Shown: in pieces, positions 1,715 to 57,161 of the stretch | Layout of the letters: each line of letters begins with the position of its first letter | How positions within the stretch are numbered: the stretch's first letter is position 1 | Assembly: GCA_963847705.1 (NCBI GenBank) | Contig: CAWKBC010000027.1 | Span: 96,001-160,000 of the forward strand | DNA length: 64,000 nt | Source of the DNA: an uncultured Pseudomonadota bacterium | GTDB lineage: Bacteria > Myxococcota_A > Polyangia > Fen-1088 | Direction: 5' to 3' | Program-made: the position numbers and the translations under genes | The notes under the pieces: model-generated | Seen by the model: only the letters and a program-made list of their open reading frames with translations | What the model was told of the DNA's origin: nothing | Database searches by the model: none

Positions 1715-1887
1715 AGCAATAAGGAGGCCGCGGCCACGCGCCCAGGCTGTCGAAGAAGCCCGCGAATATTTTGCGCGCGGCCAGTCTGTTCGCGCACGAC
1801 TTGCCGGCCGCCCGGGGCGGTCATGACCGGCGCGCCCGCTGGGCCTCGATGATCGCGGAAGTGATCCTTTGAGGCACGAGGGCTGCA
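1715..1887. promoter_or_regulatory. Divergent sigma54 promoters sharing a tandem enhancer pair
   Basis: (-) CGGCCTCCTTATTGCT 1715-1730; sites CGAA-TATTT-TGCG 1763-1775 and CGCA-CGACT-TGCC 1793-1805; (+) AGGCACGAGGGCTGCA 1872-1887. Confidence 0.7.
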
Positions 1888-1902
1888 TAGGGCCTGGGCA
1901 CG

Positions 1903-3132
1903 ATGACGACCGCCACCGCTACTGTCAGCCCGATTCGAAACGGCTCGCACCCCGCGCTCAAGAGGCCCTGGAAGATCGCCGCCGTCATCGTCGTCGTGGC
2001 CGCAATGGCTGGAATCGCCCTTCGGGCACGGAGCCGCGCAGCGGCCAAGAACGCTCCGGCTTTTCGATTCGAGACGACGACGGCCGATCGGGGACCAATC
2101 CGGGCGAAGGTCACGGCGACGGGAACGGTCAATCCAATCGTCACCGTCCAGGTCGGCGCGCAGGTGTCAGGGACGATTCTGGCGCTGGGCGCGGACTTCA
2201 ACTCGGTGGTCAAGCCCGGCCAGATGATGGCCCAGATCGATCCCCGCCTGTTCAAGGCCGCCGTTCAGCAGGCCGAGGCGAACTTCCTCTCGGCAAAGGC
2301 CAACGTCCTTCAGGTTCGCACCCAGCTCGCCAACGCCCGCAAGCAGGCGAAGCGAAATCAGAACTTGCTCGCGGAGAAATTCGTGGCTCAACAGGACGTC
2401 GACACGACCGACACCGCTGCCGCGGCTCTGGCCGCCCAGCTCAAGGCGGCTGAGGCGGTAGCCGCCCAAACGGAAGCTGCGCTGGCGACGACGAAGACCA
2501 ACCTGGCCTACACGACGATTCGCTCGCCCGTCAGCGGCACCGTCATCACACGCAACATCGACGTGGGGCAGACCGTGGCCGCAGCGTTCGCGGCGCCGAC
2601 GCTGTTCCTGGTCGGCGAGGACCTGACGAAGATGCAGGTCGACACGAACATCGCTGAGGCCGACGTCGGCCGGCTTGCGCCCGGCATGACCGCCACCTTC
2701 ACCGTCGATGCCTACCCGGCCGAGATCTTCACGGGAAAGATCCGAGAGGTTCGCAACTCGCCCCAGGTGATCCAGAACGTCGTGACCTATGACGCGGTCG
2801 TCGACGTGGACAACACGGACCGCAAGCTCAAGCCGGGGATGACCGCCAACATCGAGGTGGTCTACGCCGAACGAGCCACGGCGCTGCGCGTCGCGAACGG
2901 CGCCATCCGCTTTCGCCCGCCCGAGAGTCTCTTGGGCAAGAAGCCTCCCGCGGTTCCCCTCGATCGCAAGGTGGTCTGGGTCCAGCGGGCCGGCCTGCCG
3001 ACGCCGGTGTTCTTCAAGCCAGGGGTGAGCGATGGCGTGATGACGGAGGTCGTCGAAGGCGATTTGCAGGCCGGCGACCAGGTGATTACCGAGGTCATCT
3101 CGGCCCAATCGGCCGGCGGGCGGATCCTGTGA
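1903..3132 (+). CDS. Efflux periplasmic adaptor (MacA-like membrane fusion protein)
   Basis: N-terminal anchor, VQVGAQVSGTI, helical hairpin, IRSPVSGTVI, LKPGMTANI. Confidence 0.93.
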   Translation: MTTATATVSPIRNGSHPALKRPWKIAAVIVVVAAMAGIALRARSRAAAKNAPAFRFETTTADRGPIRAKVTATGTVNPIVTVQVGAQVSGTILALGADFNSVVKPGQMMAQIDPRLFKAAVQQAEANFLSAKANVLQVRTQLANARKQAKRNQNLLAEKFVAQQDVDTTDTAAAALAAQLKAAEAVAAQTEAALATTKTNLAYTTIRSPVSGTVITRNIDVGQTVAAAFAAPTLFLVGEDLTKMQVDTNIAEADVGRLAPGMTATFTVDAYPAEIFTGKIREVRNSPQVIQNVVTYDAVVDVDNTDRKLKPGMTANIEVVYAERATALRVANGAIRFRPPESLLGKKPPAVPLDRKVVWVQRAGLPTPVFFKPGVSDGVMTEVVEGDLQAGDQVITEVISAQSAGGRIL

Positions 3133-3950
3133 GCGGCGCCGTGGAACAGCCACTCATCGACCTCGGCCACGTCAGCAAGGTCTACACCCTGGGTGAGGTG
3201 GAGGTGCGGGCGCTCAACGACGTCACGTTCCAGGTGCCGCGCGGCGAGTTCGTCGCCATCATGGGCGCCTCGGGCTCGGGGAAGTCGACCCTCATGAACG
3301 TCCTCGGTTGTCTCGACCGCCCGACGTCCGGAACCTATCTCCTCGAAGGAAGAGAAATCGGCGGTCTGTCGCGGAACGAGTTGGCGCTCATCCGCAATGA
3401 GATGGTCGGCTTCGTCTTCCAGCACTTCAACCTGCTGTCCCGGACCAGCGCTCGAGAGAACGTCGAGCTTCCTCTCCTCTATTCGGGTGTCGTCTCCGCC
3501 CGGGAGCGGGCCGACCGGGCCCTGGCGAGCCTGGCGCGCGTCGGTCTGGCCGACCGGGCCGATCACCAGCCGAACCAGCTCTCCGGCGGCCAGCAACAGC
3601 GGGTGGCCATCGCTCGGGCGCTGGTCAACGACCCGAAGGTGATCTTCGCCGACGAGCCGACCGGTGCGCTCGACTCGCGGACGAGCATGGAGGTGATGCA
3701 GCTCTTTCAGGAGCTCGGGAGCTCCGGCATCACCATCATCCTCGTGACCCACGAGCCCGACATCGGCCGGTGCGCCGAGCGCGTGATCACCATGCGCGAC
3801 GGGCAGATCGTCTCCGACGATCGCCAGCAACCGCTCGTGGCCCGCCCGGGCCCGGCGGTCACCAGCTTGGCCGCGGAGGCGGCTTCGGTGCCGGTGGCGG
3901 CGGCGGCTCCGGCCCTGGCGGTGGCGGTATCCGTGGGAGGGCGGCCATGA
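3129..3950 (+). CDS. ABC transporter ATP-binding protein (MacB/LolD-like)
   Basis: Walker A GASGSGKS, signature LSGGQQQRV, Walker [12 protein letters not shown]. Confidence 0.95.
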
Positions 3951-5173
3951 ACGCCCTGGCCATCAGCCGCGTGGCCGGCCGCGCGCTGCTGCGGAACAAG
4001 ATGCGTTCGTTCCTGACAGCGCTGGGCGTCGTCATCGGCGTGGGCGCCGTCATCGCGATGGTGGCCATCGGCGAGGGAGCCAAGCGAAGGGTGGAGCAAA
4101 CCTTCGAGGCGATGGGGACGAACCTGCTCATCGTATTGCCGGGCTCGTCTTCGTCGATGGGGATGCGCGGGGGCTCGGGGAGTCAGGCGACGCTGACCTG
4201 GGCCGATTTGAAGGCCATTCGCACCGAGTGCAAGGCCGTCGCGGCCGCCTCTCCGGTGCTCAATTCCCACCTGGTGGTCCAGGCGGAGGATCAGAACTGG
4301 ACCACCATGGTCATCGGCGCCAACACGGATTACATGTCCATTCGCAACTGGCAGATGGCCCGGGGCCGCTTCTTCGACCAGGGCGATCTCGACGCGTCGG
4401 CCAAGGTGGTGGTCCTCGGCGAGACGGTGGTGAACAACCTCTGGAGCCCCGGGTACGACCCCGTCAACCAGTCGGTGCGGATCCAAGCGGTCCCTTTCCG
4501 GGTGATCGGGGTCCTGGCGAAGAAGGGTCAGTCTCCGATGGGGCAGGACTACGACGACACCGTCCTGCTCCCTCACACGACCTACCTCACGAAGATCTCG
4601 GCGGGCCTTGGCGGCTTCATCAACGGGATCGTGATGGTGAGCGCCACCAGCTCCGGCGAGACCACCCGCGCGCAGAACGAAATCACCTCGCTGCTCCGCG
4701 ACCGGCACCACGTCCTCGGCACCGACGACGACTTCTCCGTGCGCAACCTATCCGAGATGGCCCAGGCGCAACAGCAGGGGACGGCAATTCTCACCACGCT
4801 GTTGGCAGCGATCGCCGCCGTCTCCCTCTTGGTGGGCGGGATCGGGATCATGAACATCATGCTCGTCAGCGTCACCGAGCGAACGCGAGAGATCGGCGTG
4901 CGCATGGCGGTGGGGGCACGTTCCTGGGACATCCTGGCGCAGTTCCTCAGCGAGGCCTTGGCCATCTCGCTCGCGGGCGGGCTGCTCGGAATCGCGTTCG
5001 GCCTCCTGGCCGCTCATCAGCTGGCGGCCCACTTCGGGTGGCCATTCTTCGTCCACCTCGACGTCATCTTCATTTCGGTCGGTTTCAGCGCGCTGGTGGG
5101 TGTCGTGTTCGGCCTCTACCCCGCCCGCAAGGCATCTCGACTGGACCCGATCGAAGCCCTCCGATTCGAGTGA
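3947..5173 (+). CDS. ABC transporter permease (MacB/FtsX family)
   Basis: RSFLTALGVVIGV, GGIGIMNIMLVSVTERTREIG, PARKASRLDPIEALR; ATG overlaps the upstream stop. Confidence 0.95.
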   Translation: MNALAISRVAGRALLRNKMRSFLTALGVVIGVGAVIAMVAIGEGAKRRVEQTFEAMGTNLLIVLPGSSSSMGMRGGSGSQATLTWADLKAIRTECKAVAAASPVLNSHLVVQAEDQNWTTMVIGANTDYMSIRNWQMARGRFFDQGDLDASAKVVVLGETVVNNLWSPGYDPVNQSVRIQAVPFRVIGVLAKKGQSPMGQDYDDTVLLPHTTYLTKISAGLGGFINGIVMVSATSSGETTRAQNEITSLLRDRHHVLGTDDDFSVRNLSEMAQAQQQGTAILTTLLAAIAAVSLLVGGIGIMNIMLVSVTERTREIGVRMAVGARSWDILAQFLSEALAISLAGGLLGIAFGLLAAHQLAAHFGWPFFVHLDVIFISVGFSALVGVVFGLYPARKASRLDPIEALRFE

Positions 5174-7082: not shown

Positions 7083-7250
7083 TGCACCGAAAATGCCAAC
7101 CGCTGTCGTCTGGGGTTTCCCTGCGGTCGACGAGGGGGGGCGGGTCCAATTGCGCAACTTCCGCACCGACTGTCCGCTGGCGCGCAGGTTTCGCGCGGCC
7201 GATGACAGGGGCGGCTCGACGACGAGGACCTTCGCGGCACGTCGGATGCT
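7083..7250. promoter_or_regulatory. Divergent sigma54 promoters with tandem enhancer pair; the leftward promoter has no intact gene
   Basis: (-) TGGCATTTTCGGTGCA 7083-7098; sites CGCA-ACTTC-CGCA 7153-7165 and CGCA-GGTTT-CGCG 7183-7195; (+) CGGCACGTCGGATGCT 7235-7250. Confidence 0.68.
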
Positions 7251-8020: not shown

Positions 8021-8201
8021 TTCAAGCTGCGGGCCAGATGGCGTCGTCGGTGTCGGCAGCGTCGGCCGCGCAGAATCTGCGTCGTTCGAAATGGCACGCG
8101 CAAGAGTTGCTCGGAGGCAGAGATCCACGCGTACCAAAGGTCTTTCGTTGCCCCAACACCTCGTCAAGATGCGGCTGTCATCTGCTGGCACGACCTGTGC
8201 T
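8021..8201. promoter_or_regulatory. Tandem enhancer pair and sigma54 promoter of the CBS gene, plus a degenerate leftward motif
   Basis: Sites CGCA-GAATC-TGCG 8069-8081 and CGCA-AGAGT-TGCT 8099-8111; (+) TGGCACGACCTGTGCT 8186-8201; (-) TGGCCCGCAGCTTGAA 8021-8036. Confidence 0.72.
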
Positions 8202-9181: not shown

Positions 9182-10027
9182 TCAGGACGCGCCTTGCATC
9201 CGACCCGTGATCACTTCGAGAACCTCGGCGGTGATCTCGTCCTGTCGCAGGACGTTCTCGCTGCGACGCAGGTCGACAAGCATGTCATCGAGGTGGGTGT
9301 GTGCAGCCTGCAGGACCTCCAGGCTCGCCGCGTTGGCCGCCGCGAAGCTCTCCGCGACGAACTCGAAGAGCCTGGCGTGAACGTACTCGCCGGCGATCTG
9401 CGCCATGAGAAGCGGGGCGGGCAGCATCGTGATGGGCGGAAGGGTGTCTGGTCGCCCGCTCCCCGGGAGGTCGAGGGGCAGCAACCTACGTCGCTCAATC
9501 ACGATGGTTCCCGTCGGCGTACGCCTGGGATGGACGATCTGGACCGAAAGACCATCGATGGATCCCGATCGCTCGAGGACCAGGGCACCGATCTGGTCGG
9601 CCGCGTCGCCGATGCCTCCGAGGTGGCTGGGCATGCTTCCGATGTACGTGGCGGTCAGCCCCTGCTCGCGTGCGAGCGCTTGGCCGCGCGCCCCGACGAT
9701 ACAGAGCTGGTAAGGCACAGGCGTTTCGGCGGCCGAGCGCAGCGTGCGCTCGTTGAGCGCTCCGACGAAGCCACGCTCGGTACAGAGGGCGACGACCAGG
9801 CTCTCCCGCTCCCGACCGGGCGGATCGAGGGGAAGGACGGACCTGGCCTCGCCGGTCAGGCTGGCGAAGGCGGCACCGATTCGGTCGGCGTACTCCCGAG
9901 CCGCTGCCTGAGCCCGCTCGCCCTGTTGGATGCGCGCGGCTGCCATTCCCCGCATCGCCCCCAGGACCTCTTCGAGCTCGTTCATGGTGGCGAGGCGGGC
10001 CCGCACCTCCGCGCCTCGCTCAGACAT
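9182..10027 (-). CDS. atpG: N-type ATPase gamma subunit
   Basis: AMRGMAAARI, ERGFVGALN, RQDEITAEVLEV; last gene of the operon. Confidence 0.9.
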   Translation of the reverse strand: MSERGAEVRARLATMNELEEVLGAMRGMAAARIQQGERAQAAAREYADRIGAAFASLTGEARSVLPLDPPGRERESLVVALCTERGFVGALNERTLRSAAETPVPYQLCIVGARGQALAREQGLTATYIGSMPSHLGGIGDAADQIGALVLERSGSIDGLSVQIVHPRRTPTGTIVIERRRLLPLDLPGSGRPDTLPPITMLPAPLLMAQIAGEYVHARLFEFVAESFAAANAASLEVLQAAHTHLDDMLVDLRRSENVLRQDEITAEVLEVITGRMQGAS

Positions 10028-11561
10028 GGGCTGCTTCGGCCTCTGGCGGCCTCGCCGGTCCCGCGGCGAGCTCGATGAGCTGCCGCAAGTCCGTTCGGCA
10101 GGTGTCATCGAGCTCACCGGTGTTTCCCAGGCGCGCGACGGCTCCCGGGCGATCCTCGAGTGCATCCGCAAGGGCGGCTCGGAAGCTGGTCATCCCTTCG
10201 GCAGGAAGCCGATCCAGCGTCCCGTCCGCCAGGGCGAGGAGCATCGCGACCTGAAGCGCGAAGGGTTGTGGCTGCATTTGCACCTGGGACAACAGGGCCC
10301 GAATGCGGCGGCCATGCTCGACGATTACCCGGGTGCGTTCGTCGGAGATACCACCGAAATGGGTGAACACCTCGAGCTCCAGAAACTGTGCGTAGGCAAG
10401 GCGCAACGGCTCGGCCAGCGTCCGCATCGCAGGCTTCTGAGTCTTGCCGCCGACCCGTGAGACGCTCAGCCCCACGTCGACCGCGGGCTTCTGACCGGCG
10501 TGGAACAGCTTGGCATCGAGGACGATTTGCCCGTCCGTGATGGAGATGAGATTGGTCGGAATGTAGGCGCTCAGGTTCCCCTCCTGAGTCTCCGCGATCG
10601 GCAGCGCGGTCACCGAGCCGCCGCCGCAGCGCTGGTGAAGCTTGGCCGCGCGTTCGAGCAGCCGCGCGTGCACGTAGAAGATGTCGCCGGGGAACGCCTC
10701 GCGCCCGGGCGGTTGCCGCAACAGCAGCGAGAGCTGGCGGTGGACGTCGGCATGCTTGGTGAGATCGTCGATGACGATGAGGACGTCGCGGCCACTGCGC
10801 GCGAAGTGCTCCGCCATGGTGAACCCGGCGTAGGGGGCCAGCCACTGAAGCCCAGGCGCCGCGTGCTCGGCGTCGGCGACGACGAACAGGCACCTCTGTG
10901 GGTTCCCGTGCTCCCGGACCTGTTCGATCACGCGCTTGACGGCCGAGGCCCGTTGTCCGATCGCCACGTAGACGCAGAGGACGTCGCTGTCGCGTTGGTT
11001 GATGATCGCGTCGACGGCCAGGGTGGTCTTGCCGGTCGATCGATCGCCGATGATCAGCTCCCGTTGCCCCCGACCGATGGCGAACATCGCGTCCACCACC
11101 GCGGTCCCCGTCTCCAGCGGCACAACGACGGGCGCGCGATCGATGATCGCCGGTGCCGGGCGGTCGGCGGGCTCGAAGTGGTCCACGGCAATGGGGCCGC
11201 CATCGTCGAGCGGGCGGCCCAGCGGATCGACGATGCGGCCGAGCAGGGCGTCGCCCACGGGGACTTCCACGACGCGGCCCGTGCCGCGCACGATCTGACC
11301 GGCAGCCGCCCGCGTCGTACTGTCGAGGAGAACGCAACCAATCTCGTCCTTGCCGAGCTCAACCGCTTGCCCCATCGTCCCGTCGGGAAGCTCGAGGAGC
11401 TCGTCGAGTGCGGCGTCCGGAAGGCCGACCACGCGAGCGACACCGTCGCCCACGTGAACGATGCGCCCGATGCGCTCCACGACCGGCGCCACCGCCAGAC
11501 GCCGGAGTCGCTCTGCTGCTCCCGTCGTCCAGAGGTCCAATCGCGTGGCGAGATCGTTCAT
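10020..11561 (-). CDS. atpA: N-type ATPase alpha subunit
   Basis: GRGQRELIIGDRSTGKT, PPGREAFPGDIFY, YIPTNLISITDGQI. Confidence 0.97.
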   Translation of the reverse strand: MNDLATRLDLWTTGAAERLRRLAVAPVVERIGRIVHVGDGVARVVGLPDAALDELLELPDGTMGQAVELGKDEIGCVLLDSTTRAAAGQIVRGTGRVVEVPVGDALLGRIVDPLGRPLDDGGPIAVDHFEPADRPAPAIIDRAPVVVPLETGTAVVDAMFAIGRGQRELIIGDRSTGKTTLAVDAIINQRDSDVLCVYVAIGQRASAVKRVIEQVREHGNPQRCLFVVADAEHAAPGLQWLAPYAGFTMAEHFARSGRDVLIVIDDLTKHADVHRQLSLLLRQPPGREAFPGDIFYVHARLLERAAKLHQRCGGGSVTALPIAETQEGNLSAYIPTNLISITDGQIVLDAKLFHAGQKPAVDVGLSVSRVGGKTQKPAMRTLAEPLRLAYAQFLELEVFTHFGGISDERTRVIVEHGRRIRALLSQVQMQPQPFALQVAMLLALADGTLDRLPAEGMTSFRAALADALEDRPGAVARLGNTGELDDTCRTDLRQLIELAAGPARPPEAEAAHV

Positions 11562-12304
11562 GGCTCTTTCAGCGCGCGCTGGACCTGAGCGACCTGCTCG
11601 CGCCAGCTGTGGCGTACGACGGCGGTGGGAAGGTGAATCTCGGCTCCGGCCAAGAGAGCGGAGTCCTCGGCGAACGCAATCGCCATGTGCTCGCCCAGCG
11701 CATGGTGCAACCGCGCTGAGACCGCATCCCGTTTCACGGTCTCCAGGGGCACCGCCGTCACAACCCGGATTTCGCCGGATCCGGATGCGACGTGAGCCGT
11801 CGCTTCCCGTCCGGTGTTGCCGTCCATCGACTCGATCGTTCGAAGGGCCTCGTCGAGCAGATGCGTCGAGGCGTCGTTCACCCCCGACATGGTGAGGAGA
11901 CGGCCGGCGATCCCAGCCGCCAGCTCCGCGGCCCGTGCTTGAAGCGTGGATTCGGCGGCTGTCCGTTCCCGAGCGAGCGCCGCTTCTCCTTCCTTGAGGA
12001 GGCTGTCGGCAGACCGCCGCGCCTCGGCCAAGAGCTGGTCGCGCCGGGACTCCGCGTCCCGGCCCGCCTCGAGCAGAAACCGATCACGTTCGCCCGCCGC
12101 TGCCCGATGCTGGCGCTCCGCCTCGGCGCACAGTTCCACTGCCTTGGTCCGCTCGGCGGCGGCCGCCGCCAGAGGCGCCTCCACCTCACGCTGTCGCCGG
12201 GCGATCATCGCCTGTACTGGCCGGTACAGCCAATACCGGAGCACCCCGGCAAGGACCAGGAAGTTCACGGTCTGGAAGGCGAAGGTGGCGAGGTGGGAGT
12301 GCAT
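11558..12304 (-). CDS. atpF: N-type ATPase b subunit with delta-like C-terminal extension
   Basis: FQTVNFLVL...LYRPV membrane anchor, coiled coil, C-terminal FAEDSALLAGAEI. Confidence 0.9.
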   Translation of the reverse strand: MHSHLATFAFQTVNFLVLAGVLRYWLYRPVQAMIARRQREVEAPLAAAAAERTKAVELCAEAERQHRAAAGERDRFLLEAGRDAESRRDQLLAEARRSADSLLKEGEAALARERTAAESTLQARAAELAAGIAGRLLTMSGVNDASTHLLDEALRTIESMDGNTGREATAHVASGSGEIRVVTAVPLETVKRDAVSARLHHALGEHMAIAFAEDSALLAGAEIHLPTAVVRHSWREQVAQVQRALKEP

Positions 12305-12310
12305 GGCCGA

Positions 12311-12559
12311 CTAGTGGGCGTGGACGAAGGGATTCGCGAACAGGATGAGCAGGGCGACGACCAGGCAGTAGATCGCCATGGTCTCGATCATCGCGAGGCC
12401 CACGAACAGGGTGCGCGAGAGCGACGGCGCCGATTCGGGCTGGCGTGCCATCGCCTCCATGGCGGCGGCGACAGCCCGCCCCTCGGCCAGCGCGGGGCCG
12501 ATGGCCCCGAAGGAGACGGCGACGACGGCGCCGATGATGCTGATCTGCTCGATGGTCAT
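12311..12559 (-). CDS. atpE: N-type ATPase c subunit
   Basis: GAIGPALAEGRAV...ARQPE...FVGLAMIETMAIY. Confidence 0.96.
   Translation of the reverse strand: MTIEQISIIGAVVAVSFGAIGPALAEGRAVAAAMEAMARQPESAPSLSRTLFVGLAMIETMAIYCLVVALLILFANPFVHAH

Positions 12560-13812: not shown

Positions 13813-13816
<4 letters not shown>
13535..13816 (-). CDS. atpQ: AtpQ (AtpZ/AtpI gene-1 family)
   Basis: GSLGWLLVLPPLGGALLGRWLD; operon position. Confidence 0.85.
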
Positions 13817-15659
<1,843 letters not shown>

Positions 15660-15668: not shown

Positions 15669-15828
15669 TGCAAGGTGGACGCCAGGTGACGCGGCCCGGG
15701 AATTGAGAGCGGGTACGGCCTTTGGCGCGCAGTTCTTTCGCTATGGCAACCGCCGCCGCAGAAAATGCGCGCTTCGGTATCGGGGAAGCCGGTATGACGA
15801 CACGTGGGGTTGCGGCTCGCCACTTGCA
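15669..15828. promoter_or_regulatory. Divergent sigma54 promoters (atp operon / acyl-CoA ligase-GNAT) around a tandem enhancer pair
   Basis: (-) TGGCGTCCACCTTGCA 15669-15684; sites CGCA-GTTCT-TTCG 15728-15740 and CGCA-GAAAA-TGCG 15757-15769; (+) CGGCTCGCCACTTGCA 15813-15828. Both promoters are 44 bp from the nearest site. Confidence 0.78.
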
Positions 15829-18643: not shown

Positions 18644-19372
18644 TCAGCCCCCCGAGGAGCGTTTGACGGCGAGCTGGACCCAGGAGACCACGCTCCCTGT
18701 GTCGAGAGGCTTCGCCAGCGTGTCGGCCTGTCCCAGATCTCTTTGGATCTCGTCCTGGAGGCCTTCCGCTTGCCCCGAAATGAAGAGAATCTGGATCGAT
18801 GGATCCCGCGCCCGCAGCTGGCGGGCAATCTCCATTCCGCTCGCGTCGGGCAAGCGATAGTCGAGGACGGCCGTCCGGAGACGCCGACGGTGCGCCAAAG
18901 CTTCGGCGGCCGTGTGACTCACGACGACCTCGTGTCCCGCCGCTGTGAGCGCCTCGGCGAGGTTTTCGGCGAGATTCACCTCGTCGTCCACCACCAGCGC
19001 CGCGGCCGGTCGCAGGGCAAGCGACTCAAAAGCCTCGACCAACGTCGGTAGCGGCACCGGCTTGGGTAGGAACAGCCAGGCCCCCGCGGCCCGCGATCGG
19101 TCGATCGTCGCCTCGTCTGTGTAGGCGCTCATCATCAGGACGGGAATTCTTTCGCCCCGACGCCGGAGCTCCTCGATCAGCTGAGCTCCGGTCTGGCCGG
19201 GAAGCTTGTAGTCGGTGACGACCGCTGTGATCCCACCTTGCGCGACCCGCTCGAGCCCAGCCTCTGCCGACCCGGCAACCTCGGTCTCGAATCCGATCCC
19301 TTGCAAGATCTCGGCGATGTTTTCGGCGAGCTCGATTTGATCGTCGACCACCAAGACGTGTCCGGACTTCAT
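18644..19372 (-). CDS. Response regulator with two REC domains and no output domain (NmpT/AfGcHK partner-like)
   Basis: VLVVDD...VVTDYKLPG...LPKP and LVVDD...AVLDYRLPD...LAKP; both phospho-Asp present. Confidence 0.9.
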   Translation of the reverse strand: MKSGHVLVVDDQIELAENIAEILQGIGFETEVAGSAEAGLERVAQGGITAVVTDYKLPGQTGAQLIEELRRRGERIPVLMMSAYTDEATIDRSRAAGAWLFLPKPVPLPTLVEAFESLALRPAAALVVDDEVNLAENLAEALTAAGHEVVVSHTAAEALAHRRRLRTAVLDYRLPDASGMEIARQLRARDPSIQILFISGQAEGLQDEIQRDLGQADTLAKPLDTGSVVSWVQLAVKRSSGG

Positions 19373-19439
19373 GGGGTTCCCGCCTAACAACTAGATCACC
19401 GCCCGGCGCGGGTCAAACGACCAGCTGGTCGAAGGGCGG

Positions 19440-19531
19440 CGCATCCCTTGCGCCTGCCTGCGATTTCGTGCGCACGAATTGCGTCCCCAGGGCCCCCCGT
19501 GCGGCGGTCCCAGGCTGGCACGTCGCTCGCA
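19440..19531 (+). promoter_or_regulatory. Tandem enhancer pair and sigma54 promoter of the cytochrome c'-like gene
   Basis: CGCA-TCCCT-TGCG 19440-19452, CGCA-CGAAT-TGCG 19471-19483; TGGCACGTCGCTCGCA 19516-19531. Confidence 0.78.
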
Positions 19532-22803: not shown

Positions 22804-22944
22804 CGCAACGGGAGTGCCAACCCCGGAACGCTCACCGTTCGCCGCTCGAGTGCGCAGTTCCTGCGCTTGATTCCTCTCAGGGGTGAAAGGAATGCGGGAA
22901 TTCGAAGCGCTCGTGGCCAGGCGCTGTGGGGAACGGCAGTTGCA
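22804..22944. promoter_or_regulatory. Divergent sigma54 promoters with tandem enhancer pair
   Basis: (-) TGGCACTCCCGTTGCG 22804-22819; CGCA-GTTCC-TGCG 22853-22865 and TGAA-AGGAA-TGCG 22884-22896; (+) GGGAACGGCAGTTGCA 22929-22944. Confidence 0.72.
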
Positions 22945-25722: not shown

Positions 25723-25733
25723 GCCGGAATTCG

Positions 25734-25855
25734 CGCAGATTGTGCGCGCGGCTCCCCCGATGGCGCATTCCCTGCAGCCAATGTGTGAGAGGACACTCGT
25801 CGCCCGCCGCCACCCGGCGTCACTCGCCGTCTTGGGCGCTGGTCCGGTCGTTGCA
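25734..25855 (+). promoter_or_regulatory. Tandem enhancer pair and sigma54 promoter of the USP-activator-USP operon
   Basis: CGCA-GATTG-TGCG 25734-25746, CGCA-TTCCC-TGCA 25764-25776; TGGTCCGGTCGTTGCA 25840-25855. Confidence 0.72.
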
Positions 25856-26324: not shown

Positions 26325-27776
26325 ATGGCCGACGTCAATCAAGCAGTCGCACCTTCGTCCCCGAGAGGAGCTCCCCGCACCGTGGAAAACAAAGGAAGAA
26401 TTCTGGTCGTCGACGACGAGGTGAACGCGCGGACGGCGCTCCTAGAGCTTCTCCGAGACGAAGGGTACGTGGTCGAGTCCGCGGCGGATGCCTTCAAGGC
26501 GCTGGGGAAGGTGGCCGATTTCGCGCCCGACCTCGTGCTGACCGATCTCAAGATGCCCGGCATGGACGGCCTGCAACTCCTCGCCAAGCTGCGCGAAACC
26601 GACGCCGACCTTCCGGTGATCGTGATGACCGCCTTCGGCGAGGTCGAAACGGCCGTCCGGGCCATGCGTTCGGGAGCGCGTGACTACCTGGCCAAGCCGG
26701 TGAACGTTGGCGAGCTCTCTGTCGTCGTGGCGCGCGAGCTGGAGCAGCGTCGCCTGCGGGCGGAGACCGGCCTTCTGCGGGCGCGCCTCGCCGAAAAGTA
26801 CAGCTTCGACAACATCATCGGCAGCTCGGCGCCGATGCAGGCCGTGTTCAAGACGGTGGCTCAGATCGCGCCGTCCCGGGCCAGTGTCCTCATCACGGGT
26901 GAGTCCGGCACGGGCAAGGAGCTCATCGCTGCCGCCATCCACGAGCACAGTCCTCGGGCCAAGGGGCCATTCGTCAAGCTCCACTGCGCCGCTTTGGCCG
27001 AGTCGATCCTGGAGAGCGAGCTCTTCGGGCACGAGAAGGGATCGTTCACCGGGGCGCAAACCCGCCGAGACGGGCGGTTCCAACAGGCCAACCACGGAAC
27101 GCTGTTCCTGGACGAGATCGGCGAGATCGCGCCGTCCGTCCAGGTGAAGTTGCTTCGCTTTCTGCAGGAGCGGGAGTTCGAGCGGGTGGGCGGAAATGAG
27201 ACCGTCAGCGTCGACGTGCGGGTCATCGCCGCCACCAACAGGAACCTCCAGCGGATGGTGGAGGAGGGGAAGTTCCGCGAGGATCTGTTCTACCGCCTGA
27301 ACGTCATCAGCCTGGAGATGCCGGCCCTTCGGGCCCGTCCTTCCGATACGACGCTGCTGGCCTCCTACTTTCTCCGCAAGTACGCCACCGAGAACGGAAA
27401 GGAGCTTCGGGGTTTCAGCTCCGAGGCGCTCGAGCACATGGCCGCCTACAACTGGCCAGGCAACGTCCGCGAGCTCGAGAACGTCGTCGAACGGGCTGTC
27501 GTGCTGGCTCAGTCGGCGGAGGTGACGCTTGCAGACCTGCCGCCGCAGCTGGCGACCGCCAAGCCGCGGGAAGGCCTTCAGATCCCTGGCGCGACGATGG
27601 ATGAAATCGAGCGCTACGCCATCACCAAGACGCTGGAATCGACCGGCGGCTCGACCAGCCGCGCCGCCGAGATCCTCAACATCAGCGTTCGCAAGATTCA
27701 GTACAAGCTCCACGAATTCGAAAGCGCCCCCAAGTCAGCGCTGCCGTCCGTGCGCGACGGGGAGCCGGAATCATGA
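26325..27776 (+). CDS. sigma54-dependent NtrC-family response regulator (NmpR-like)
   Basis: REC (LTDLKMPGMDG), GESGTGKE, ELFGHEKGSFTGA (GAFTGA variant), LFLDEIG, WPGNVRELEN, Fis-type HTH. Start may be the GTG near 26382. Confidence 0.95.
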   Translation: MADVNQAVAPSSPRGAPRTVENKGRILVVDDEVNARTALLELLRDEGYVVESAADAFKALGKVADFAPDLVLTDLKMPGMDGLQLLAKLRETDADLPVIVMTAFGEVETAVRAMRSGARDYLAKPVNVGELSVVVARELEQRRLRAETGLLRARLAEKYSFDNIIGSSAPMQAVFKTVAQIAPSRASVLITGESGTGKELIAAAIHEHSPRAKGPFVKLHCAALAESILESELFGHEKGSFTGAQTRRDGRFQQANHGTLFLDEIGEIAPSVQVKLLRFLQEREFERVGGNETVSVDVRVIAATNRNLQRMVEEGKFREDLFYRLNVISLEMPALRARPSDTTLLASYFLRKYATENGKELRGFSSEALEHMAAYNWPGNVRELENVVERAVVLAQSAEVTLADLPPQLATAKPREGLQIPGATMDEIERYAITKTLESTGGSTSRAAEILNISVRKIQYKLHEFESAPKSALPSVRDGEPES

Positions 27777-28207: not shown

Positions 28208-29605
28208 CTACACGCTGCGACTGAGGGGAAGCGTGAACGTGAAGCAGGTCTGGCCGGGCCGCGACGCGACGGTGATGGTGCCGCGATGGTCAGCCACGAT
28301 CCGGTGGACCAAGGCAAGACCGAGGCCGGTCCCCTGATCCTTGGTGGTGAAGAAGGCGTCGAAGACCGGTAGCTGGTCAGGAAATCCGGGGCCGTCGTCC
28401 TCGACGTCGATCTCGAGGAGATCTTCGCGACCGCGGGCCCGGAGGGTCAGAGTGCCTCCATGTTCCTGCATGGACTCCACCGCGTTGCGGGTCAGGTTGA
28501 GCAAAACCTGACGCAGACGCTCCGCATCGCCAGCCGCCCGAGGAAGCGCCGGGTCTGCTTCCACCTTCACGGCGATCCGCGCGGCCTCGGCTTCCGGCGC
28601 AATCAATTCGACGGTGCCTGCGAGCAGCTGCGAGAGATCCACCGGTCGCGGGTCGAGCGGCGTCGGCTTCGCAAAGGCCAGGAACTCCCGGACGAGCCGC
28701 TCCAGCCGGTCGATTTCACTCTTGATGATTCGAGTAATCGATGTGGCCCGGTCCCCGGTCTCCCCCCGTTCCAATCGGCGCTCGAGGACGGCGAGCTGAA
28801 GCGAGGCGGAGTTCAGCGGATTGCGAACCTCATGAGCCAGCCCAGCAGCCATCGTCCCGACCGCTGCCAGACGTTCCGCACGCATTGTCCGGAGCAACAT
28901 CTCCTGCTCGTCCGTCACGTCGATTCCGACGGCGTAGACGAGCGGGGCGCCGTCCGCCTCGGGGACCTCCGCGCGGCTCCATCGGACCTTGCGTGCGCCC
29001 CCTGCCTTCAGCGGAAGATCATGAGGACGTTCGTCCGAGCCGACCAACGCGGATCCCTCGGTTCCCAGCATTTCGCCGCGTGAGTAACCGGTCACGCGCT
29101 CGAGCTGACGATTCCAGGTCGAAATCCGCCCGCGTTCATCGAGAGCCAAAACGAAGGCCGGCACCGACTCGATGAGCTCGCGATGGCGGCGCTCCGAGCG
29201 CTCGAGGTCGAGGCGCAGATGTTCCCGGTCGCGATAAAGGCCCGATTGCTCGAGCGCCCGCCGGACGGTGTCCAACAGATCCGGTGGGGAAACGGGTTTG
29301 AGTACATAGGCGAAGGCGTCCCCGCGCACCGCCGCGATCGCACCTTCGAGGGTGGCGTTTCCGGTGACCAGCACCAGCTGGATGAAATGGGAACGCGCCC
29401 GCAGCGGCTCCAAAAGAGACATCCCGTCTCCATCCGGCAGGCGCACATCGATCAGCGCCACGTCGAAGTCCCGCTCGTTCACGAGCTCGAGCGCGGTCTT
29501 GCGATCCCGCGCGATGGCTGTCTCGACGCCCAGGCTCTCGACGATCTCGGCGACATTCTCTGCCAGCGCCTCGTCGTCATCGACGACCAGCACGTTTCCG
29601 TTCAT
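28208..29605 (-). CDS. Hybrid REC-PAS-histidine kinase (NmpS-like)
   Basis: N-terminal REC (LIDVRLPDGDG), PAS (WNRQLERVTGYS), AHEVRNPL, DDGPG, GTGLGL. Confidence 0.92.
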   Translation of the reverse strand: MNGNVLVVDDDEALAENVAEIVESLGVETAIARDRKTALELVNERDFDVALIDVRLPDGDGMSLLEPLRARSHFIQLVLVTGNATLEGAIAAVRGDAFAYVLKPVSPPDLLDTVRRALEQSGLYRDREHLRLDLERSERRHRELIESVPAFVLALDERGRISTWNRQLERVTGYSRGEMLGTEGSALVGSDERPHDLPLKAGGARKVRWSRAEVPEADGAPLVYAVGIDVTDEQEMLLRTMRAERLAAVGTMAAGLAHEVRNPLNSASLQLAVLERRLERGETGDRATSITRIIKSEIDRLERLVREFLAFAKPTPLDPRPVDLSQLLAGTVELIAPEAEAARIAVKVEADPALPRAAGDAERLRQVLLNLTRNAVESMQEHGGTLTLRARGREDLLEIDVEDDGPGFPDQLPVFDAFFTTKDQGTGLGLALVHRIVADHRGTITVASRPGQTCFTFTLPLSRSV

Positions 29606-30783
29606 GCGGTCATGTTAGCCGCGATGGGGGCGGTGGGGAGAACGAGAACGAAGGCAGCGCCCTTATCGCTGGGGGCGAGCTGGATGCTGCCGCCGTGGGC
29701 CTCGGCGATGCGGCGGCAGAGCGCCAACCCGAGGCCGCTCCCCTTTGCCTTGGTCGTGAACAGCGCCTCGAAGATCCGATGACGGACCTCGACGGGGATG
29801 CCGGGGCCATCGTCGTGGACCCGGATCGAGGCTGCGCCGGCCGAAGGCACGGCCTCCGCCGCGACCTCGATGCGGCCACCCTGGGGCATCGCTTGGGCTG
29901 CGTTCGTGAACAGGTTGACCAGCACCTGCTGGATTTGATCGGGATCCACGTGAACCGCCAGGTCGTCGGGCAGGGCCGTCAGTGTGACCCGAACCAACGG
30001 CGGAAGAAGGGCCGTCGCGGTCGCGCTCTCGACCAGTTGGCGGAGATCTGTGGGAAGACGGCGCGGCGGTCGATTGCGTGCGAGGTCGAGAAGATCGTGA
30101 ATGGTCTTGTTCGCGCGGACGACCTCGCCGCCGATGCGATCGAGATGCTTGGCGACGTTGGGGAGGGATGCCGCGTCCTGTCCCAGGTGCTGGCGCAGGA
30201 GAAACAACGATGACTCGATGACGCCGAGGGGATTTCGAAGCTCGTGGCCGATCCCGGCGGCGAACTGGCCGATGGTGGCCAGACGCTCGGCGTTGCGGTT
30301 CTTCACGACGAGGTCTTCACGATAGGTCTCCAGCATGATCGCCAGCTCGAGGTCGAGGATCTGGTGGAGGGCCGTGGAGGCCCTCCGCAGAGCAGCGGGA
30401 TCGTCGACCAGCCGTTCGCGCACGACGTCGAGCAGGTGCACCCGGATGCGGTTCATCGCCGTGAACATGAATCCCTGCGGCAGATCGATGCGGACGTGGA
30501 CGCGGCCGATCCGCGCCCGCATTTGATAGTAGGCCTCGTCGTGTGGTCCGAGGAGCATGGTCTCCAGCCAGCGAACGAGCGTCTGTTTCAGCCGCTCGAC
30601 TTGAGCGGGCCCGCCCGTGATGGCTGCACGCGCGCTCGGGTGAGCCTCGATGGCGGAGTAAAAATCGTCGACGATCGACACGAACGACGGCTGCGCGATG
30701 GGGTGCAGCTCCCGGAGCGCAGCCGATGAAGCTTCTGTGAAGCCGACATACTGCTTGAGACTCTCGAAGAACGTGAGTGGCAT
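29602..30783 (-). CDS. Globin-coupled histidine kinase, copy 1 (AfGcHK/NmpU-like)
   Basis: Sensor globin LKQYVGF...DDFY...RIGRVHVRIDLPQ...LDLELAIMLETY, then GHELRNPL and HATPase. Confidence 0.93.
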   Translation of the reverse strand: MPLTFFESLKQYVGFTEASSAALRELHPIAQPSFVSIVDDFYSAIEAHPSARAAITGGPAQVERLKQTLVRWLETMLLGPHDEAYYQMRARIGRVHVRIDLPQGFMFTAMNRIRVHLLDVVRERLVDDPAALRRASTALHQILDLELAIMLETYREDLVVKNRNAERLATIGQFAAGIGHELRNPLGVIESSLFLLRQHLGQDAASLPNVAKHLDRIGGEVVRANKTIHDLLDLARNRPPRRLPTDLRQLVESATATALLPPLVRVTLTALPDDLAVHVDPDQIQQVLVNLFTNAAQAMPQGGRIEVAAEAVPSAGAASIRVHDDGPGIPVEVRHRIFEALFTTKAKGSGLGLALCRRIAEAHGGSIQLAPSDKGAAFVLVLPTAPIAANMTA

Positions 30784-33257: not shown

Positions 33258-33369
33258 AGCACGTGGCGTGCCGGCCGCCGTTCGAGCTGCACTCTCGAAA
33301 CTCCGGCGACGACCTCACTGGGGCTGCGCAAAAAGTGCGGTCACCACCGAGGGGCCCGCAATCCTGACG
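33258..33369 (-). promoter_or_regulatory. sigma54 promoter of ppsA with tandem enhancer pair
   Basis: CGGCACGCCACGTGCT 33258-33273; CGCA-AAAAG-TGCG 33327-33339 and CGCA-ATCCT-GACG 33357-33369. Confidence 0.75.
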
Positions 33370-33376
33370 CGGAGGC

Positions 33377-35843: not shown

Positions 35844-35945
35844 TGCAAGAGCCGGGCTAAGGACAGACCGGCTTACGAAAGGGGGACTCTCTCGCGCAAA
35901 CGCGCAAACTCTGCGGTCCGGTCACGGCCGGGCGTCAAAACTGCG
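35844..35945 (-). promoter_or_regulatory. Non-canonical sigma54 motif of cydAB with tandem enhancer pair
   Basis: TAGCCCGGCTCTTGCA 35844-35859 (AG instead of GG); CGCA-AACTC-TGCG 35903-35915 and CGTC-AAAAC-TGCG 35933-35945. Confidence 0.6.
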
Positions 35946-35996
35946 TGCTCGGGGTTCGGGTGCTCCCACGACCAGTTCCGGCCGCCGGAACGATGG

Positions 35997-39166: not shown

Positions 39167-39255
39167 TGCAGGATGAATGCCAGCAACAATTCGCGCCGGC
39201 ACGCTTTCGATCGCGCAAGGAATGCGGACCACCGCGTGACGGCGCAACCTTTTCG
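39167..39255 (-). promoter_or_regulatory. sigma54 promoter of yceI-glgP with tandem enhancer pair
   Basis: TGGCATTCATCCTGCA 39167-39182; CGCA-AGGAA-TGCG 39214-39226 and CGCA-ACCTT-TTCG 39243-39255. Confidence 0.75.
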
Positions 39256-39310
39256 CGATCCGATGAGCAGAAGCCGTCCGCAGGTCCACCCTGCATGGTA
39301 GCGTGACGCC

Positions 39311-40480
39311 GTGTTCAGGACTTTTCGCGAAAACGTGAACGCTTACGTCGGCTTCGACGCCGCTGCCACCGAGTCCCTCCGCGAAGCGCATCCGTTGGTC
39401 GCGCCGCGTTTTGGCGCGATCATCGACGACTTCTACGCGACCATCGAAGCGCATCCCAACGCGCGCGCCGCCATCACCGGCGGGGCCGCTCAGATTGCCA
39501 GGCTCAAGCAGTCTCTCTTGCGCTGGATCGACGAGCTATTCAAGGGGCCGCACGACAACGCCTACTTCGACCGCCGCGCCCGCATCGGGCGGGTTCACGT
39601 TCAGATCAACCTTCCGCAGATGTACATGTTCACAGCGATGGATCGCATCCGCCTTCGATCGGCCGATGCGCTCCGAGAGGCGCCCGGGGTCGCCCCCGAG
39701 AAGCTGAACCGGATGCTGGCGGCCCTGCATCAGATCCTGGACATCGAGCTCGCGATCATGCTCGAGACGTACCGGGACGACCTTCTGACGAAGAACCGGA
39801 CCGCTGAGCGGTTGGCGACCATCGGACAGTTCGCCGCGGGCATCGGGCACGAGCTTCGCAATCCGCTCGGGGTCGTCGAGAGCTCGGCGTATCTCGTGAC
39901 TCAGCGTCTCGAGCAGCTCAGCGTGTCCGATCCCCGGGTGGCGCGCCACATGGAGAAGATCACGACGGAGGTCCAGAGGTCCGGTAGGACGATCAACGAC
40001 CTTCTGGAGCTCGCGCGGAACAAGCCGCCCAAGCGGCGTGTCGTCGATTGTCGTCAGTTCGTCTTGGATGCTGTCCCCGCTGCCCACCTCGATCCGGGCG
40101 TCGAGGTCATCGTCGAGGTTCCCGCCGGTCTGCCGCTCGATGCGGATCCCGATCAGCTCACCCGCGTCATCACGAACCTGTGCATCAACGCGAGTCAGGC
40201 GATGAACGCCAAAGGCCACATCTGGATCGACGCCTGGCGAGAAGGTGCGGCGACGGTTCTGCGTGTCCGCGACGAAGGACCAGGCGTTCCGTCGAACCTG
40301 CAGGTGCAGGTGTTCGAGGCGCTCTTCACCACGAAGGCGAAGGGGAGTGGGCTCGGCCTGGCGCTTTGCAGGCGCATCGCCGAGGCGCACGGTGGAACCG
40401 TCTCGCTGGAGCCGTCGGAGCAAGGAGCCGCGTTCCGAATCACCGTTCCGGACGCAACGCACGCGGGCGTCGAGAGATAG
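39311..40480 (+). CDS. Globin-coupled histidine kinase, copy 2
   Basis: YVGF...DDFY...RIGRVHVQINLPQ...GHELRNPLG; clear paralog of 29602-30783. Confidence 0.93.
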   Translation: MFRTFRENVNAYVGFDAAATESLREAHPLVAPRFGAIIDDFYATIEAHPNARAAITGGAAQIARLKQSLLRWIDELFKGPHDNAYFDRRARIGRVHVQINLPQMYMFTAMDRIRLRSADALREAPGVAPEKLNRMLAALHQILDIELAIMLETYRDDLLTKNRTAERLATIGQFAAGIGHELRNPLGVVESSAYLVTQRLEQLSVSDPRVARHMEKITTEVQRSGRTINDLLELARNKPPKRRVVDCRQFVLDAVPAAHLDPGVEVIVEVPAGLPLDADPDQLTRVITNLCINASQAMNAKGHIWIDAWREGAATVLRVRDEGPGVPSNLQVQVFEALFTTKAKGSGLGLALCRRIAEAHGGTVSLEPSEQGAAFRITVPDATHAGVER

Positions 40481-41243: not shown

Positions 41244-41328
41244 CAGCGCTTGCCGGGGTTGGCATTCGATCTGGGGTCAGGTCTGCGGCGGGCATGTCGA
41301 TCCCCATGGCGACAGAACCAGGTGACTG

Positions 41329-41372
41329 CGCAAAACCTGCATGGCCTGGGCTCGTCCGGCGCAAGGTTAACG
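41329..41372. promoter_or_regulatory. Tandem enhancer pair upstream of the ZIP gene
   Basis: CGCA-AAACC-TGCA 41329-41341 and CGCA-AGGTT-AACG 41360-41372; only a weak sigma54-like motif (41291-41306). Confidence 0.45.
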
Positions 41373-41804
41373 CGTCGATGTCATCTCCCACTCGAAGTAG
41401 CGGCGGGCGAAGCGGACGAAATCTGCTTCGGTGACGATCCCGACCAACTTGCCGCCCTCCATCACCGGAAGACAGCCGAGCTTGAAGGTTTCCAGCAGGC
41501 GGGCCGCTTCAGCCGCCGTCGTCGCCGGGTCGACGGTCAGAACGTCCTTCTCCATGACCATCTCGACCGGCACCTCACGCTCCACGTCGCCACGGGATTC
41601 CTCGTTTGGGTGCCCGTGACTGACCCAGGACTCGAGGATCCTTCGGTGGGTGATGAGGCCGACCAGGTGTTCGTTGCCGTCCACCACCGGAAGGTGGCGG
41701 ATCCGACCTCGCGCGATCTGCCTTCGAGCCGCGGCCAGCGTATCGCCTATTCCCAACACCTCGACCACACCCGTCATGATCTCTTTCACCGTTGTGGTCG
41801 CCAT
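41367..41804 (-). CDS. CBS domain pair protein
   Basis: VKEIMT, IRHLPVVD, LGCLPV...LVGIVTEADF. Confidence 0.92.
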   Translation of the reverse strand: MATTTVKEIMTGVVEVLGIGDTLAAARRQIARGRIRHLPVVDGNEHLVGLITHRRILESWVSHGHPNEESRGDVEREVPVEMVMEKDVLTVDPATTAAEAARLLETFKLGCLPVMEGGKLVGIVTEADFVRFARRYFEWEMTSTR

Positions 41805-43397: not shown

Positions 43398-43489
43398 TGC
43401 AGCTCCAGTGCCAACCGCGATCTCGGTTCATTTCGCGTCCGGGGGGCGCACGATCTGCGCTCGTGAGCACGACGCGCGCAAAACTTGCG
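43398..43489 (-). promoter_or_regulatory. sigma54 promoter with two perfect enhancer palindromes
   Basis: TGGCACTGGAGCTGCA 43398-43413; CGCA-CGATC-TGCG 43447-43459 and CGCA-AAACT-TGCG 43477-43489. Confidence 0.8.
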
Positions 43490-43502
43490 GGCGGGACCGG
43501 GC

Positions 43503-46308: not shown

Positions 46309-46467
46309 AGCAGCAATCGTGCCGCCCCGAGGGCCCCCGAAGCCTGCACAAAAGCGAGCAGCAGGCGCGAAAACTGCGGCACCGGACTCGGGGCATGCAG
46401 GATCTGCGCAGGTCGGCCAATCACGGACGACCTTTTCAGACCGTGGGTGATTGGCACGGCACCTGCG
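46309..46467. promoter_or_regulatory. Divergent sigma54 promoters with tandem enhancer pair
   Basis: (-) CGGCACGATTGCTGCT 46309-46324; CGCG-AAAAC-TGCG 46366-46378 and TGCA-GGATC-TGCG 46396-46408; (+) TGGCACGGCACCTGCG 46452-46467. Confidence 0.75.
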
Positions 46468-49635: not shown

Positions 49636-49809
49636 AGCAATATGAGGGCCACGCATGCCCGCGGCGTGTCGCGGGGCCCGGGCGCGAATATTGTGCGTTC
49701 TGTGACGGCTTCGGCGCAGGACATGCGCGTGGGATCGATCGGGAGGGGGATCAGATCGCTGCCGCCGCCGAGCAGGTCACCGGGCGGCTGCCATGGCACT
49801 CGATGTGCA
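49636..49809. promoter_or_regulatory. Divergent sigma54 promoters with tandem enhancer pair
   Basis: (-) TGGCCCTCATATTGCT 49636-49651; CGAA-TATTG-TGCG 49685-49697 and CGCA-GGACA-TGCG 49715-49727; (+) TGGCACTCGATGTGCA 49794-49809. Confidence 0.78.
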
Positions 49810-52868: not shown

Positions 52869-52887
52869 CCGGTCCTCCCGGGCGCCG

Positions 52888-52988
52888 CGCAAATCCGTCG
52901 CCCCAAGCGCTGCAGCGTCGCTCCCTACGCAGAAAATGCGCGGTTTGCCGGAACCGCGGGTGGATTCCCGGCTGGAACGCCGGTTGCA
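52888..52988 (+). promoter_or_regulatory. Enhancer sites (40 bp apart) and sigma54 promoter
   Basis: CGCA-AATCC-GTCG 52888-52900, CGCA-GAAAA-TGCG 52928-52940; TGGAACGCCGGTTGCA 52973-52988. Confidence 0.72.
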
Positions 52989-56927: not shown

Positions 56928-56961
56928 CGCGAATCTCCGAACAAAACCACTGTCCGACCAG

Positions 56962-57000
56962 CGAGGCGACCGTCGACGAAGCATGTCGACGGTCGCCTCG
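56962..57000. terminator. Perfect 16-bp stem hairpin downstream of the ADH gene
   Basis: CGAGGCGACCGTCGAC-GAAGCAT-GTCGACGGTCGCCTCG; no U-tract. Confidence 0.65.
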
Positions 57001-57049
57001 TCGCGTCTGGCGATCGAGCGGCGCCGTCACCCGAGGAAGAGGTCGTCGG

Positions 57050-57161
57050 CGCACGGGTTGCGTCGGTCAACTGGCGAAACGCAGATTTTGCGTGGCGTTC
57101 CGAGTCAGCGCCGAGAAAACACGCAGTCACATCGATGAAGTGCCTTGGCGCCGCCATTGCA
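57050..57161 (+). promoter_or_regulatory. Two perfect enhancer palindromes and sigma54 promoter
   Basis: CGCA-CGGGT-TGCG 57050-57062, CGCA-GATTT-TGCG 57080-57092; TGGCGCCGCCATTGCA 57146-57161. Confidence 0.8.

Follow-up and report, generated by a model that had tools for sequence, protein, structure and literature searches.

How closely, and on which face of the helix, does an enhancer-bound activator sit next to its sigma-54 promoter? The question is raised by a 64,000-nucleotide stretch of contig CAWKBC010000027.1 (assembly GCA_963847705.1, positions 96,001 to 160,000; hereafter the window, in whose coordinates all positions are given) from an uncultured bacterium of the Polyangia lineage Fen-1088, in which paired palindromes with the consensus GCGCA-N5-TGCGC lie upstream of sigma-54 boxes. 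A first-pass annotation had described the distances between them as short and as falling in helical-turn steps. The consensus matches the published box of NmpR, which in Myxococcus xanthus binds both boxes of a pair, requires the proximal one and activates sigma-54 promoters, the two boxes being 14-15 nucleotides (nt) apart in five of seven bound promoters (PMC11841059). In the pathway proposed for M. xanthus, low oxygen switches off the globin kinase NmpU, freeing NmpS to phosphorylate NmpR (PMC6211767). Here we describe a comb of box-to-promoter gaps that is real and general for NmpR-type promoters.

Box-to-promoter gaps in the window form a comb

Palindrome pairs were located without reference to promoters, and sigma-54 16-mers were scored with a matrix trained on 126 sites outside the window that had been picked with a seed consensus. 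We define the gap as the number of bases that separate the proximal palindrome from the T of the 16-mer. At least one sigma-54 box, oriented to a gene, accompanies 15 of the 16 modules, the exception being the pair at 41328. An automatic scan found an outward-facing box on 15 of 28 pair sides and an inward-facing one on none. The 22 gaps fall into classes at 30, 31, 31, 31, 31, 31, 32, 32 and 32 bp; 38, 40, 42, 42, 42 and 42 bp; 52, 52 and 53 bp; 62, 65 and 65 bp; and 73 bp. Their best period is 10.75 bp (R = 0.81, p < 1e-4 under both a uniform null and an envelope-preserving jitter null), and 19 of them lie within 2.5 bp of the fitted teeth, with 38, 65 and 65 off. The 20 stronger gaps give R = 0.79, and leaving out the first class gives a period of 11.15 bp (n = 13, p about 0.004). 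These values reproduce the 9/6/3/3/1 classes and the steps of about 10.5-11 bp reported earlier, where every gap was 2 bp larger; the first and last boxes (1715-1730 and 57146-57161) agree with the limits given there.

Two of the nine boxes in the shortest class are weak (1730-, score 8.4; 8036-, score 6.8), and no reading frame of at least 45 amino acids starts within about 80 nt of either; the case at 22929+ rests on a 3-mismatch site. Eight further boxes in the window (23371+, 41833-, 41850+, 42379+, 49110-, 54761+, 62668- and 62737-) and the weak box 49900- have no pair within 200 bp and were left out of the 22-gap counts. Two of these, the strong boxes 41833- and 41850+, stand back to back at 41818-41865. 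The nearest upstream pair of 41850+, like that of 23371+, is about 475 bp away.

The palindromes are predicted sites of an NmpR orthologue

Spacing between palindromes peaks at 29-31 bp in 10 of the 16 window pairs (at most three mismatches in total) and is flat in the rest of the genome; 14-16 nt separate the two boxes in 15 of the 16 modules and 25 nt in one. Pfam scans of the window detected one sigma-54 response regulator (26382-27776), two protoglobin histidine kinases, a REC-PAS hybrid kinase and a REC-REC protein, and an RpoN-box gene is encoded in the genome. For comparison we used the corresponding locus of the Myxococcus-like genome G469, which was located with a primer from the supplement of PMC11841059; as a close relative, G469 stands in for M. 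xanthus. The window regulator and the G469 regulator are reciprocal best hits with 54% identity (next best, 47-49%) and a nearly identical recognition helix. In a one-way comparison, the NmpU-, NmpS- and NmpT-like proteins of the window are 47%, 43-47% and 32% identical to those of the G469 locus. On this protein and motif similarity, the window regulator is an NmpR orthologue and the palindromes are its predicted binding sites. Four G469 promoters have gaps of 41 (the nmpR-operon orthologue), 31, 33 and 32 bp (nmpU), and the 24-nt box spacing of the G469 nmpU promoter is as PMC11841059 reports.

The same teeth recur in other genomes

An exact pair pattern matched 66 of 401 genomes of the phylum, and 29 of its 30 loci were used, the window's own being dropped. 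Further sets comprised 40 chosen regions, 38 regions around nmpR orthologues and at least 120 perfect pairs from genomes of all prokaryotes. Outward boxes were found on 79 of 147 pair sides in the genus set (against 3 in the wrong orientation), on 80 of 205 in the other-families set (against 10) and on 37 of 284 at the all-prokaryote loci (against 5). Dropping gaps below 15 bp and duplicates left 200 promoters in 125 downstream-gene clusters. With one promoter per cluster and gaps of 15-100 bp (n = 114), the period is 11.0 bp (bootstrap 10.6-11.35; R = 0.67, p < 1e-4), the class means are 30.9, 40.7, 52.6, 63.1 and 73.1 bp, and a linear fit places the teeth at 30.5 + 10.63k bp. There is a floor near 29 bp, with just 3 of the 200 promoters at 15-26 bp. 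In this promoter-independent scan, then, the offsets are not flat but fall on the same teeth, and the earlier argument that phasing backs both motif calls holds beyond the window.

With the teeth fixed beforehand, we turned to metagenomes (121 loci, 110 distinct pairs, 211 sides; 41 boxes and 6 inward controls). In this held-out set, 34 of 38 in-range gaps lay within 2.5 bp of the preset teeth and none was below 26 bp; the nominal p of 5e-8 overstates the result, because at least four, and probably a dozen or more, of the cases are one gene family at 42-44 bp that also occurs in Verrucomicrobiota records.

Orthologous promoters mostly differ by whole turns. Within gene families, gap differences were 0-3 bp in 168 comparisons, 4-5 bp in 4, 6-7 bp in none, 8-14 bp in 40, 15-17 bp in none, 18 bp in 1, 20-23 bp in 10, 24-30 bp in none and 31-35 bp in 8, and alignments of orthologues contain insertions of +22, +11, +13, +12 and +8. 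The nmpR-operon promoter, for example, has a gap of 62 bp in the window and 39-42 bp in eight relatives; promoter 39182 has 30 bp against 41 bp in one orthologue, and promoter 33273 has 52 bp against 39 bp in two. At most about a third of the pairs serve two promoters: five solid and two weak of the 16 window modules, and 13 of 61, 11 of 58 and 3 of 32 box-bearing pairs in the other sets. Divergent use, which had been called frequent, is thus real but a minority arrangement.

Perfect pairs with gaps of 42-44 bp and strong sigma-54 boxes occur in the Verrucomicrobiota/Acidobacteriota records L072, L078, L099, L114, L142 and L086, mostly before one family of signal-peptide proteins. No NmpR-like recognition helix was found in the four such genomes searched, the best matches being about 50% identical with different helices. 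Perfect pairs in L117, L130, L134 (alphaproteobacterial), L152 and L177 flank TTGAC and have no sigma-54 box, which suggests a different, sigma-70-type regulator with a similar site. Viral contigs showed no comb (20 pair matches, two of them with a box, at a gap of 76 and at gaps of 12 and 70), and the NmpR consensus was not clearly matched in the Escherichia coli atoD promoter. A hidden third box behind the 52, 63 and 73 classes was also rejected, as the best matches mostly had 4-8 mismatches (one had 3) and barely exceeded control positions.

Start codons and loop composition

A start codon lies 28-29 nt after the box T in 31 of 111 de-duplicated NmpR-type promoters and at 20 of 192 other intergenic boxes; in the window, 14 of 29 boxes have one at 28-30 nt (about +3/+4), including 19516+, 25840+, 43413-, 46324-, 49110-, 49651- and 57146+. 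A Shine-Dalgarno-like word is absent from 72 of 80 promoters with starts at 27-31 nt, compared with 35 of 90 with later starts. Transcripts from many of these sigma-54 promoters are therefore predicted to be leaderless or nearly so, and the pile-up of start codons independently supports the box calls. No paper on leaderless sigma-54 transcripts turned up in our literature searches; in PMC12754779, leaderless mRNA is mentioned only for a sigmaA-type promoter.

The loops between box and promoter show a 10.3-bp A/T periodicity across the 111 promoters (p = 0.003), which is not significant in the 5 window members alone, and there is no 10.5-bp A/T signal outside the pair (p = 0.92). The IHF consensus is not enriched in the loops (exact matches in 0 of 185; one mismatch in 5 loops against 3 controls and at most 6 in shuffles), and the window loops hold no IHF site at up to one mismatch, although myxobacterial IHF may prefer another sequence. 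A short linker between the AAA+ and helix-turn-helix (HTH) domains was considered as a cause of stiffness and rejected: the window value of 70, against 67-90 in the 23 of 34 proteins in which it could be measured, is at the short end but not distinct.

A proposed stiff, phased bend and its alternatives

We propose that the short DNA bend toward the polymerase is stiff and that selection probably holds the pair, with NmpR bound, to a single rotational face of it. In published structures, which lack the DNA-binding domain, the ring of the bacterial enhancer-binding protein engages sigma-54 region I on the bubble side opposite the polymerase (PMC11839083). With the proximal box and the -24 element linked by 30-75 bp, the cost of twisting the DNA would be too high, so that only whole-turn insertions would be tolerated, these alone keeping the ATPase ring facing the -12 bubble. 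The 29-bp floor would mark a steric or bending limit, and the bend may be eased by phased A/T bases and perhaps by HU/IHF-family proteins that have no consensus site. The symmetry of the individual boxes allows a single pair to be in phase with promoters to its left or right.

Several observations weigh against this proposal. A/T phasing, with a period of 10.4 bp, also occurs upstream of 192 pairless sigma-54 boxes in the genome and is thus not NmpR-specific. The genomes are related, and the all-prokaryote and metagenome support comes in part from one gene family at 42-44 bp, for which no NmpR-like recognition helix was found in four genomes. The teeth are 3-6 bp wide; 15 of 184 in-range promoters lie off them (38, 65 and 65 in the window; 48, 55 and 77 elsewhere), and period estimates vary from 9.7 to 11.5 bp between subsets. 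The 12 of 200 promoters with gaps above 100 bp have no significant period (p = 0.16-0.19), gap differences among orthologues do not count as evidence independent of the comb, and at least one gap of 62 (L192) is, by alignment, a miscalled proximal site.

In an alternative reading, the phase would be set by an architectural partner, either IHF/HU bound in the loop or upstream DNA wrapped on the polymerase, and NmpR boxes would simply fit around it. The A/T phase is identical upstream of sigma-54 boxes with and without pairs, the genome encodes four HU/IHF-like proteins, and nucleoid proteins often assist looping (reviewed in PMC7057263 and PMC7408454). We nevertheless consider this explanation unlikely, given that the IHF consensus is not enriched, the loops are rich in G+C, with an A+T content of 0.28-0.39, and there is little space for a partner in the 30-bp class. 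Inheritance of the comb by copying one cassette around the island, with neutral spacing, would explain why the modules are concentrated there and why a near-perfect palindrome occurs in the 200 bp upstream of only 5 of the 192 other intergenic boxes in the genome, two of which lie just to the left of the window. Such copying is largely refuted, and we regard it as very improbable: the window loops are mutually unlike (identity 0.29, compared with 0.28 when shuffled), there are five spacing classes among which orthologues move mostly by whole turns, and identical teeth are found in other families and in G469. Hardly credible at all, and refuted by the controls, is the view that G+C-rich DNA simply supplied the matches that were picked, even though GCGC words are common, two of the 22 boxes are weak and, in genomes outside the myxobacteria, many perfect pairs lack a sigma-54 box. 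The wrong-orientation control gave 0 against 15 in the window and a reversed-pattern control 0 against 3 in the genome, the pair-spacing peak is confined to the window, the held-out metagenome prediction was borne out, and start codons are concentrated 28-29 nt downstream of the box.

Building on the proposed stiff bend, we suggest only tentatively, and with more doubt than confidence, that the 30-bp class represents a minimal sigma-54 unit, in which a simple bend would bring the activator ring to the -12 bubble and enhancer, activator and polymerase would form one rigid complex, with neither a free loop nor IHF, and that many such promoters would make leaderless mRNAs for translation at low oxygen. 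The proximal box, at -65, would then lie inside the 70-bp limit reported for NtrC (PMC7408454). If true, such a unit would offer a compact natural template for structural work on sigma-54 polymerase together with a full-length activator bound to its enhancer.

The spacing rule of 30.5 + 10.6k bp, with a floor near 29 bp, concerns an activator that has been validated experimentally elsewhere, and it sharpens the prediction of NmpR targets in uncultured myxobacteria. The many natural variants also offer a means of probing the lower length limit of a sigma-54 enhancer loop.

Gene content of the island

The window (G+C 66%), from a Polyangia-like lineage, holds a large predicted low-oxygen regulon whose members cluster in one island (Table 1). 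Among the listed homologues of its regulator, those with names are assigned to Polyangia. Pfam scans identified clustered universal stress proteins (USPs) and CBS, YceI, BON and hemerythrin proteins, together with cytochrome bd, an F-type ATP synthase operon, PEP synthase, PPK2 and alcohol dehydrogenase. The island reaches about 7 kb to the left of the window, where in-phase modules lie at positions 89378 (gap 43) and 90266 (gap 74) of the contig (contig 27), and another in-phase module lies elsewhere in the genome (C16:1742, gap 31).

The ATP synthase operon (9182-15656, minus strand) is of a second type, with the gene order beta, epsilon, a, c, b, alpha, gamma, and we take it to be an N-ATPase; it has a predicted NmpR promoter and is divergent from the CoA-ligase gene. 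The box at 7083-7098 is strong and in phase and points antisense into the end of a USP gene, possibly producing a small RNA or peptide. The 3' end of a CBS gene holds the pair without a canonical box (41328-41373). On the minus strand, a box-like sequence at a distance of 72 bp from this pair (41239-41255), in which an additional base separates GG from GC, precedes a ZIP transporter gene. The second protoglobin histidine kinase (39335-40480), encoded in addition to the NmpU-like one, may provide an extra oxygen input.

Table 1. Palindrome-pair modules and putative Nmp signalling genes in the window (gaps in bp)
Feature	Pair	Span	Strand	Sigma-54 boxes (strand, gap)	Genes or basis
Module	1762-1806	1715..1887		1872-1887 (+, 65); weak 1715-1730 (-, 31)	+: HlyD/ABC/OEP efflux operon; -: no clear gene
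Module	7152-7196	7083..7250		7235-7250 (+, 38, off-tooth); 7083-7098 (-, 53)	+: VIT1 gene; -: 13-codon frame only
Module	8068-8112	8021..8201		8186-8201 (+, 73); weak 8021-8036 (-, 31)	+: CBS gene
Divergent module	15727-15770	15669..15828		15669-15684 (-, 42); 15813-15828 (+, 42)	-: F-type ATP synthase operon; +: CoA-ligase gene
Module	19439-19484	19439..19531	+	19516-19531 (31)	Cytochrome c'-like gene
Divergent module	22852-22897	22804..22944		22804-22819 (-, 32); 22929-22944 (+, 31)	-: CBS gene
Module	25733-25777	25733..25855	+	25840-25855 (62)	Heads usp-nmpR-usp operon
Module	33326-33370	33258..33370	-	33258-33273 (52)	Heads PEP synthase-nmpU-nmpS
Module	35902-35946	35844..35946	-	35844-35859 (42, score 9.1)	Heads cytochrome bd genes
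Module	39213-39256	39167..39256	-	39167-39182 (30)	YceI gene
Orphan pair	41328-41373	41328..41373		No canonical box within 170 bp on either side	
Module	43446-43490	43398..43490	-	43398-43413 (32)	YceI gene
Divergent module	46365-46409	46309..46467		46309-46324 (-, 40); 46452-46467 (+, 42)	-: USP gene
Divergent module	49684-49728	49636..49809		49636-49651 (-, 32); 49794-49809 (+, 65)	-: cytochrome c'-like gene
Module	52887-52901 and 52927-52941, 40 bp apart	52887..52988	+	52973-52988 (31)	USP gene
Module	57049-57093	57049..57161	+	57146-57161 (52)	YceI/porin genes
REC-REC protein, NmpT-like		18644..19372	-		32% to G469 copy
NmpR orthologue (REC, sigma-54 AAA+, Fis-type HTH)		26382..27776	+		Pfam, reciprocal best hit
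NmpS-like hybrid kinase (REC-PAS-HisKA-HATPase)		28208..29605	-		Pfam, G469 comparison
NmpU-like protoglobin histidine kinase		29602..30783	-		47% to G469 copy
Second protoglobin histidine kinase		39335..40480	+		41% to G469 NmpU copy

Comparison with known sigma-54 systems

The first-pass annotation contrasted these promoters with classical enhancers, setting edge-to-edge gaps against literature values that run from site centre to start site. To place both on one scale, we used E. coli glnAp2, whose proximal NtrC site has its centre at -108 (PMC5159524) and is separated by 73 bp from the box T. This puts the box T at -26 and the centres of the window's NmpR sites at -64 to -107 (proximal) and -93 to -137 (distal), so that the longest window class coincides with glnAp2 site II (-108). 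Upstream-site distances are given as 100-150 bp in PMC7057263 and 100-250 bp in PMC6615313; in Desulfovibrio, most promoters are less than 100 nt from the nearest site (PMC4641369), and most activators of NmpR's kind are described as acting within 100 bp (PMC11841059). A review sets 70 bp from the start site as the minimum for NtrC and cites work on nifLA for dependence on the face of the helix (PMC7408454). Against these ranges, the window modules do not keep to the classical 100-150 bp, classes 3-5 are ordinary and classes 1-2 are compact (15 of 22 in the window, 129 of 200 promoters overall). 'Short' therefore describes the two shortest classes, and a face-of-helix-dependent geometry is consistent with the phasing throughout but compact only in those 15. 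The earlier reading was also overstated in that helical stepping of natural sigma-54 enhancers has already been published (PMC4740811). Since the principle of helical phasing is known, the gain here is quantitative and system-specific. Literature searches, which covered few subscription papers, returned none on NmpR box-to-promoter phasing, and we did not find in print a regulon-wide comb, a floor near 29 bp or a shortest class about two turns below that of the Vibrio qrr genes.

The closest precedent for the comb is the Vibrio qrr/LuxO system, in which 61 natural sigma-54 enhancers have loops in clusters about 11 bp apart with periodic A/T content (PMC4740811). Those loops, measured from tandem centre to promoter centre, span about 80-120 bp in one gene family, whereas NmpR modules on the same measure span 60-104 bp (15 of 22 at 60-72.5 bp and 7 at 82-104 bp) and serve more than 100 unrelated target families. 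The tandem dyads of glnAp2 are, like the NmpR boxes, about three turns apart (PMC5159524, PMC7408454), and the sites at -108 (II) and -66 (IV) fall on teeth 5 and 1. The -66 site has been modelled as non-activating, in contrast to an NmpR proximal box at -65, which belongs to one of the two commonest classes. In E. coli glnA (L234), this low-affinity NtrC site sits 32 bp from the box, as in the shortest NmpR class. Promoters assisted by IHF, such as pspA, resemble what is proposed for the NmpR modules in their phase-dependent activation, which oscillates with a 10-bp period as the upstream site is shifted (PMC6710252, PMC7057263); they differ from them in that NmpR loops show no enrichment of the IHF consensus and in distance, the NmpR sites being nearer than 100-150 bp (PMC7057263).

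The nearest relative is the NmpRSTU regulon of M. xanthus itself (PMC11841059, PMC6211767), which shares the box consensus, the inter-box gap, the downstream sigma-54 site, an orthologous regulator with putatively orthologous kinases, nmpR and nmpU operons that are predicted to be autoregulated, and CBS, USP and high-affinity oxidase targets. The text of PMC11841059 contains no analysis of box-to-promoter phase, nor the word 'helical'. Unlike the M. xanthus arrangement, the window's NmpT-like gene is not adjacent to nmpU and nmpS. In M. xanthus, the seven bound promoters are scattered over the genome (PMC11841059), whereas here about 20 predicted ones lie in one island, which also contains the second protoglobin kinase, PPK2, PEP synthase, cytochrome bd and the F-type ATP synthase operon.

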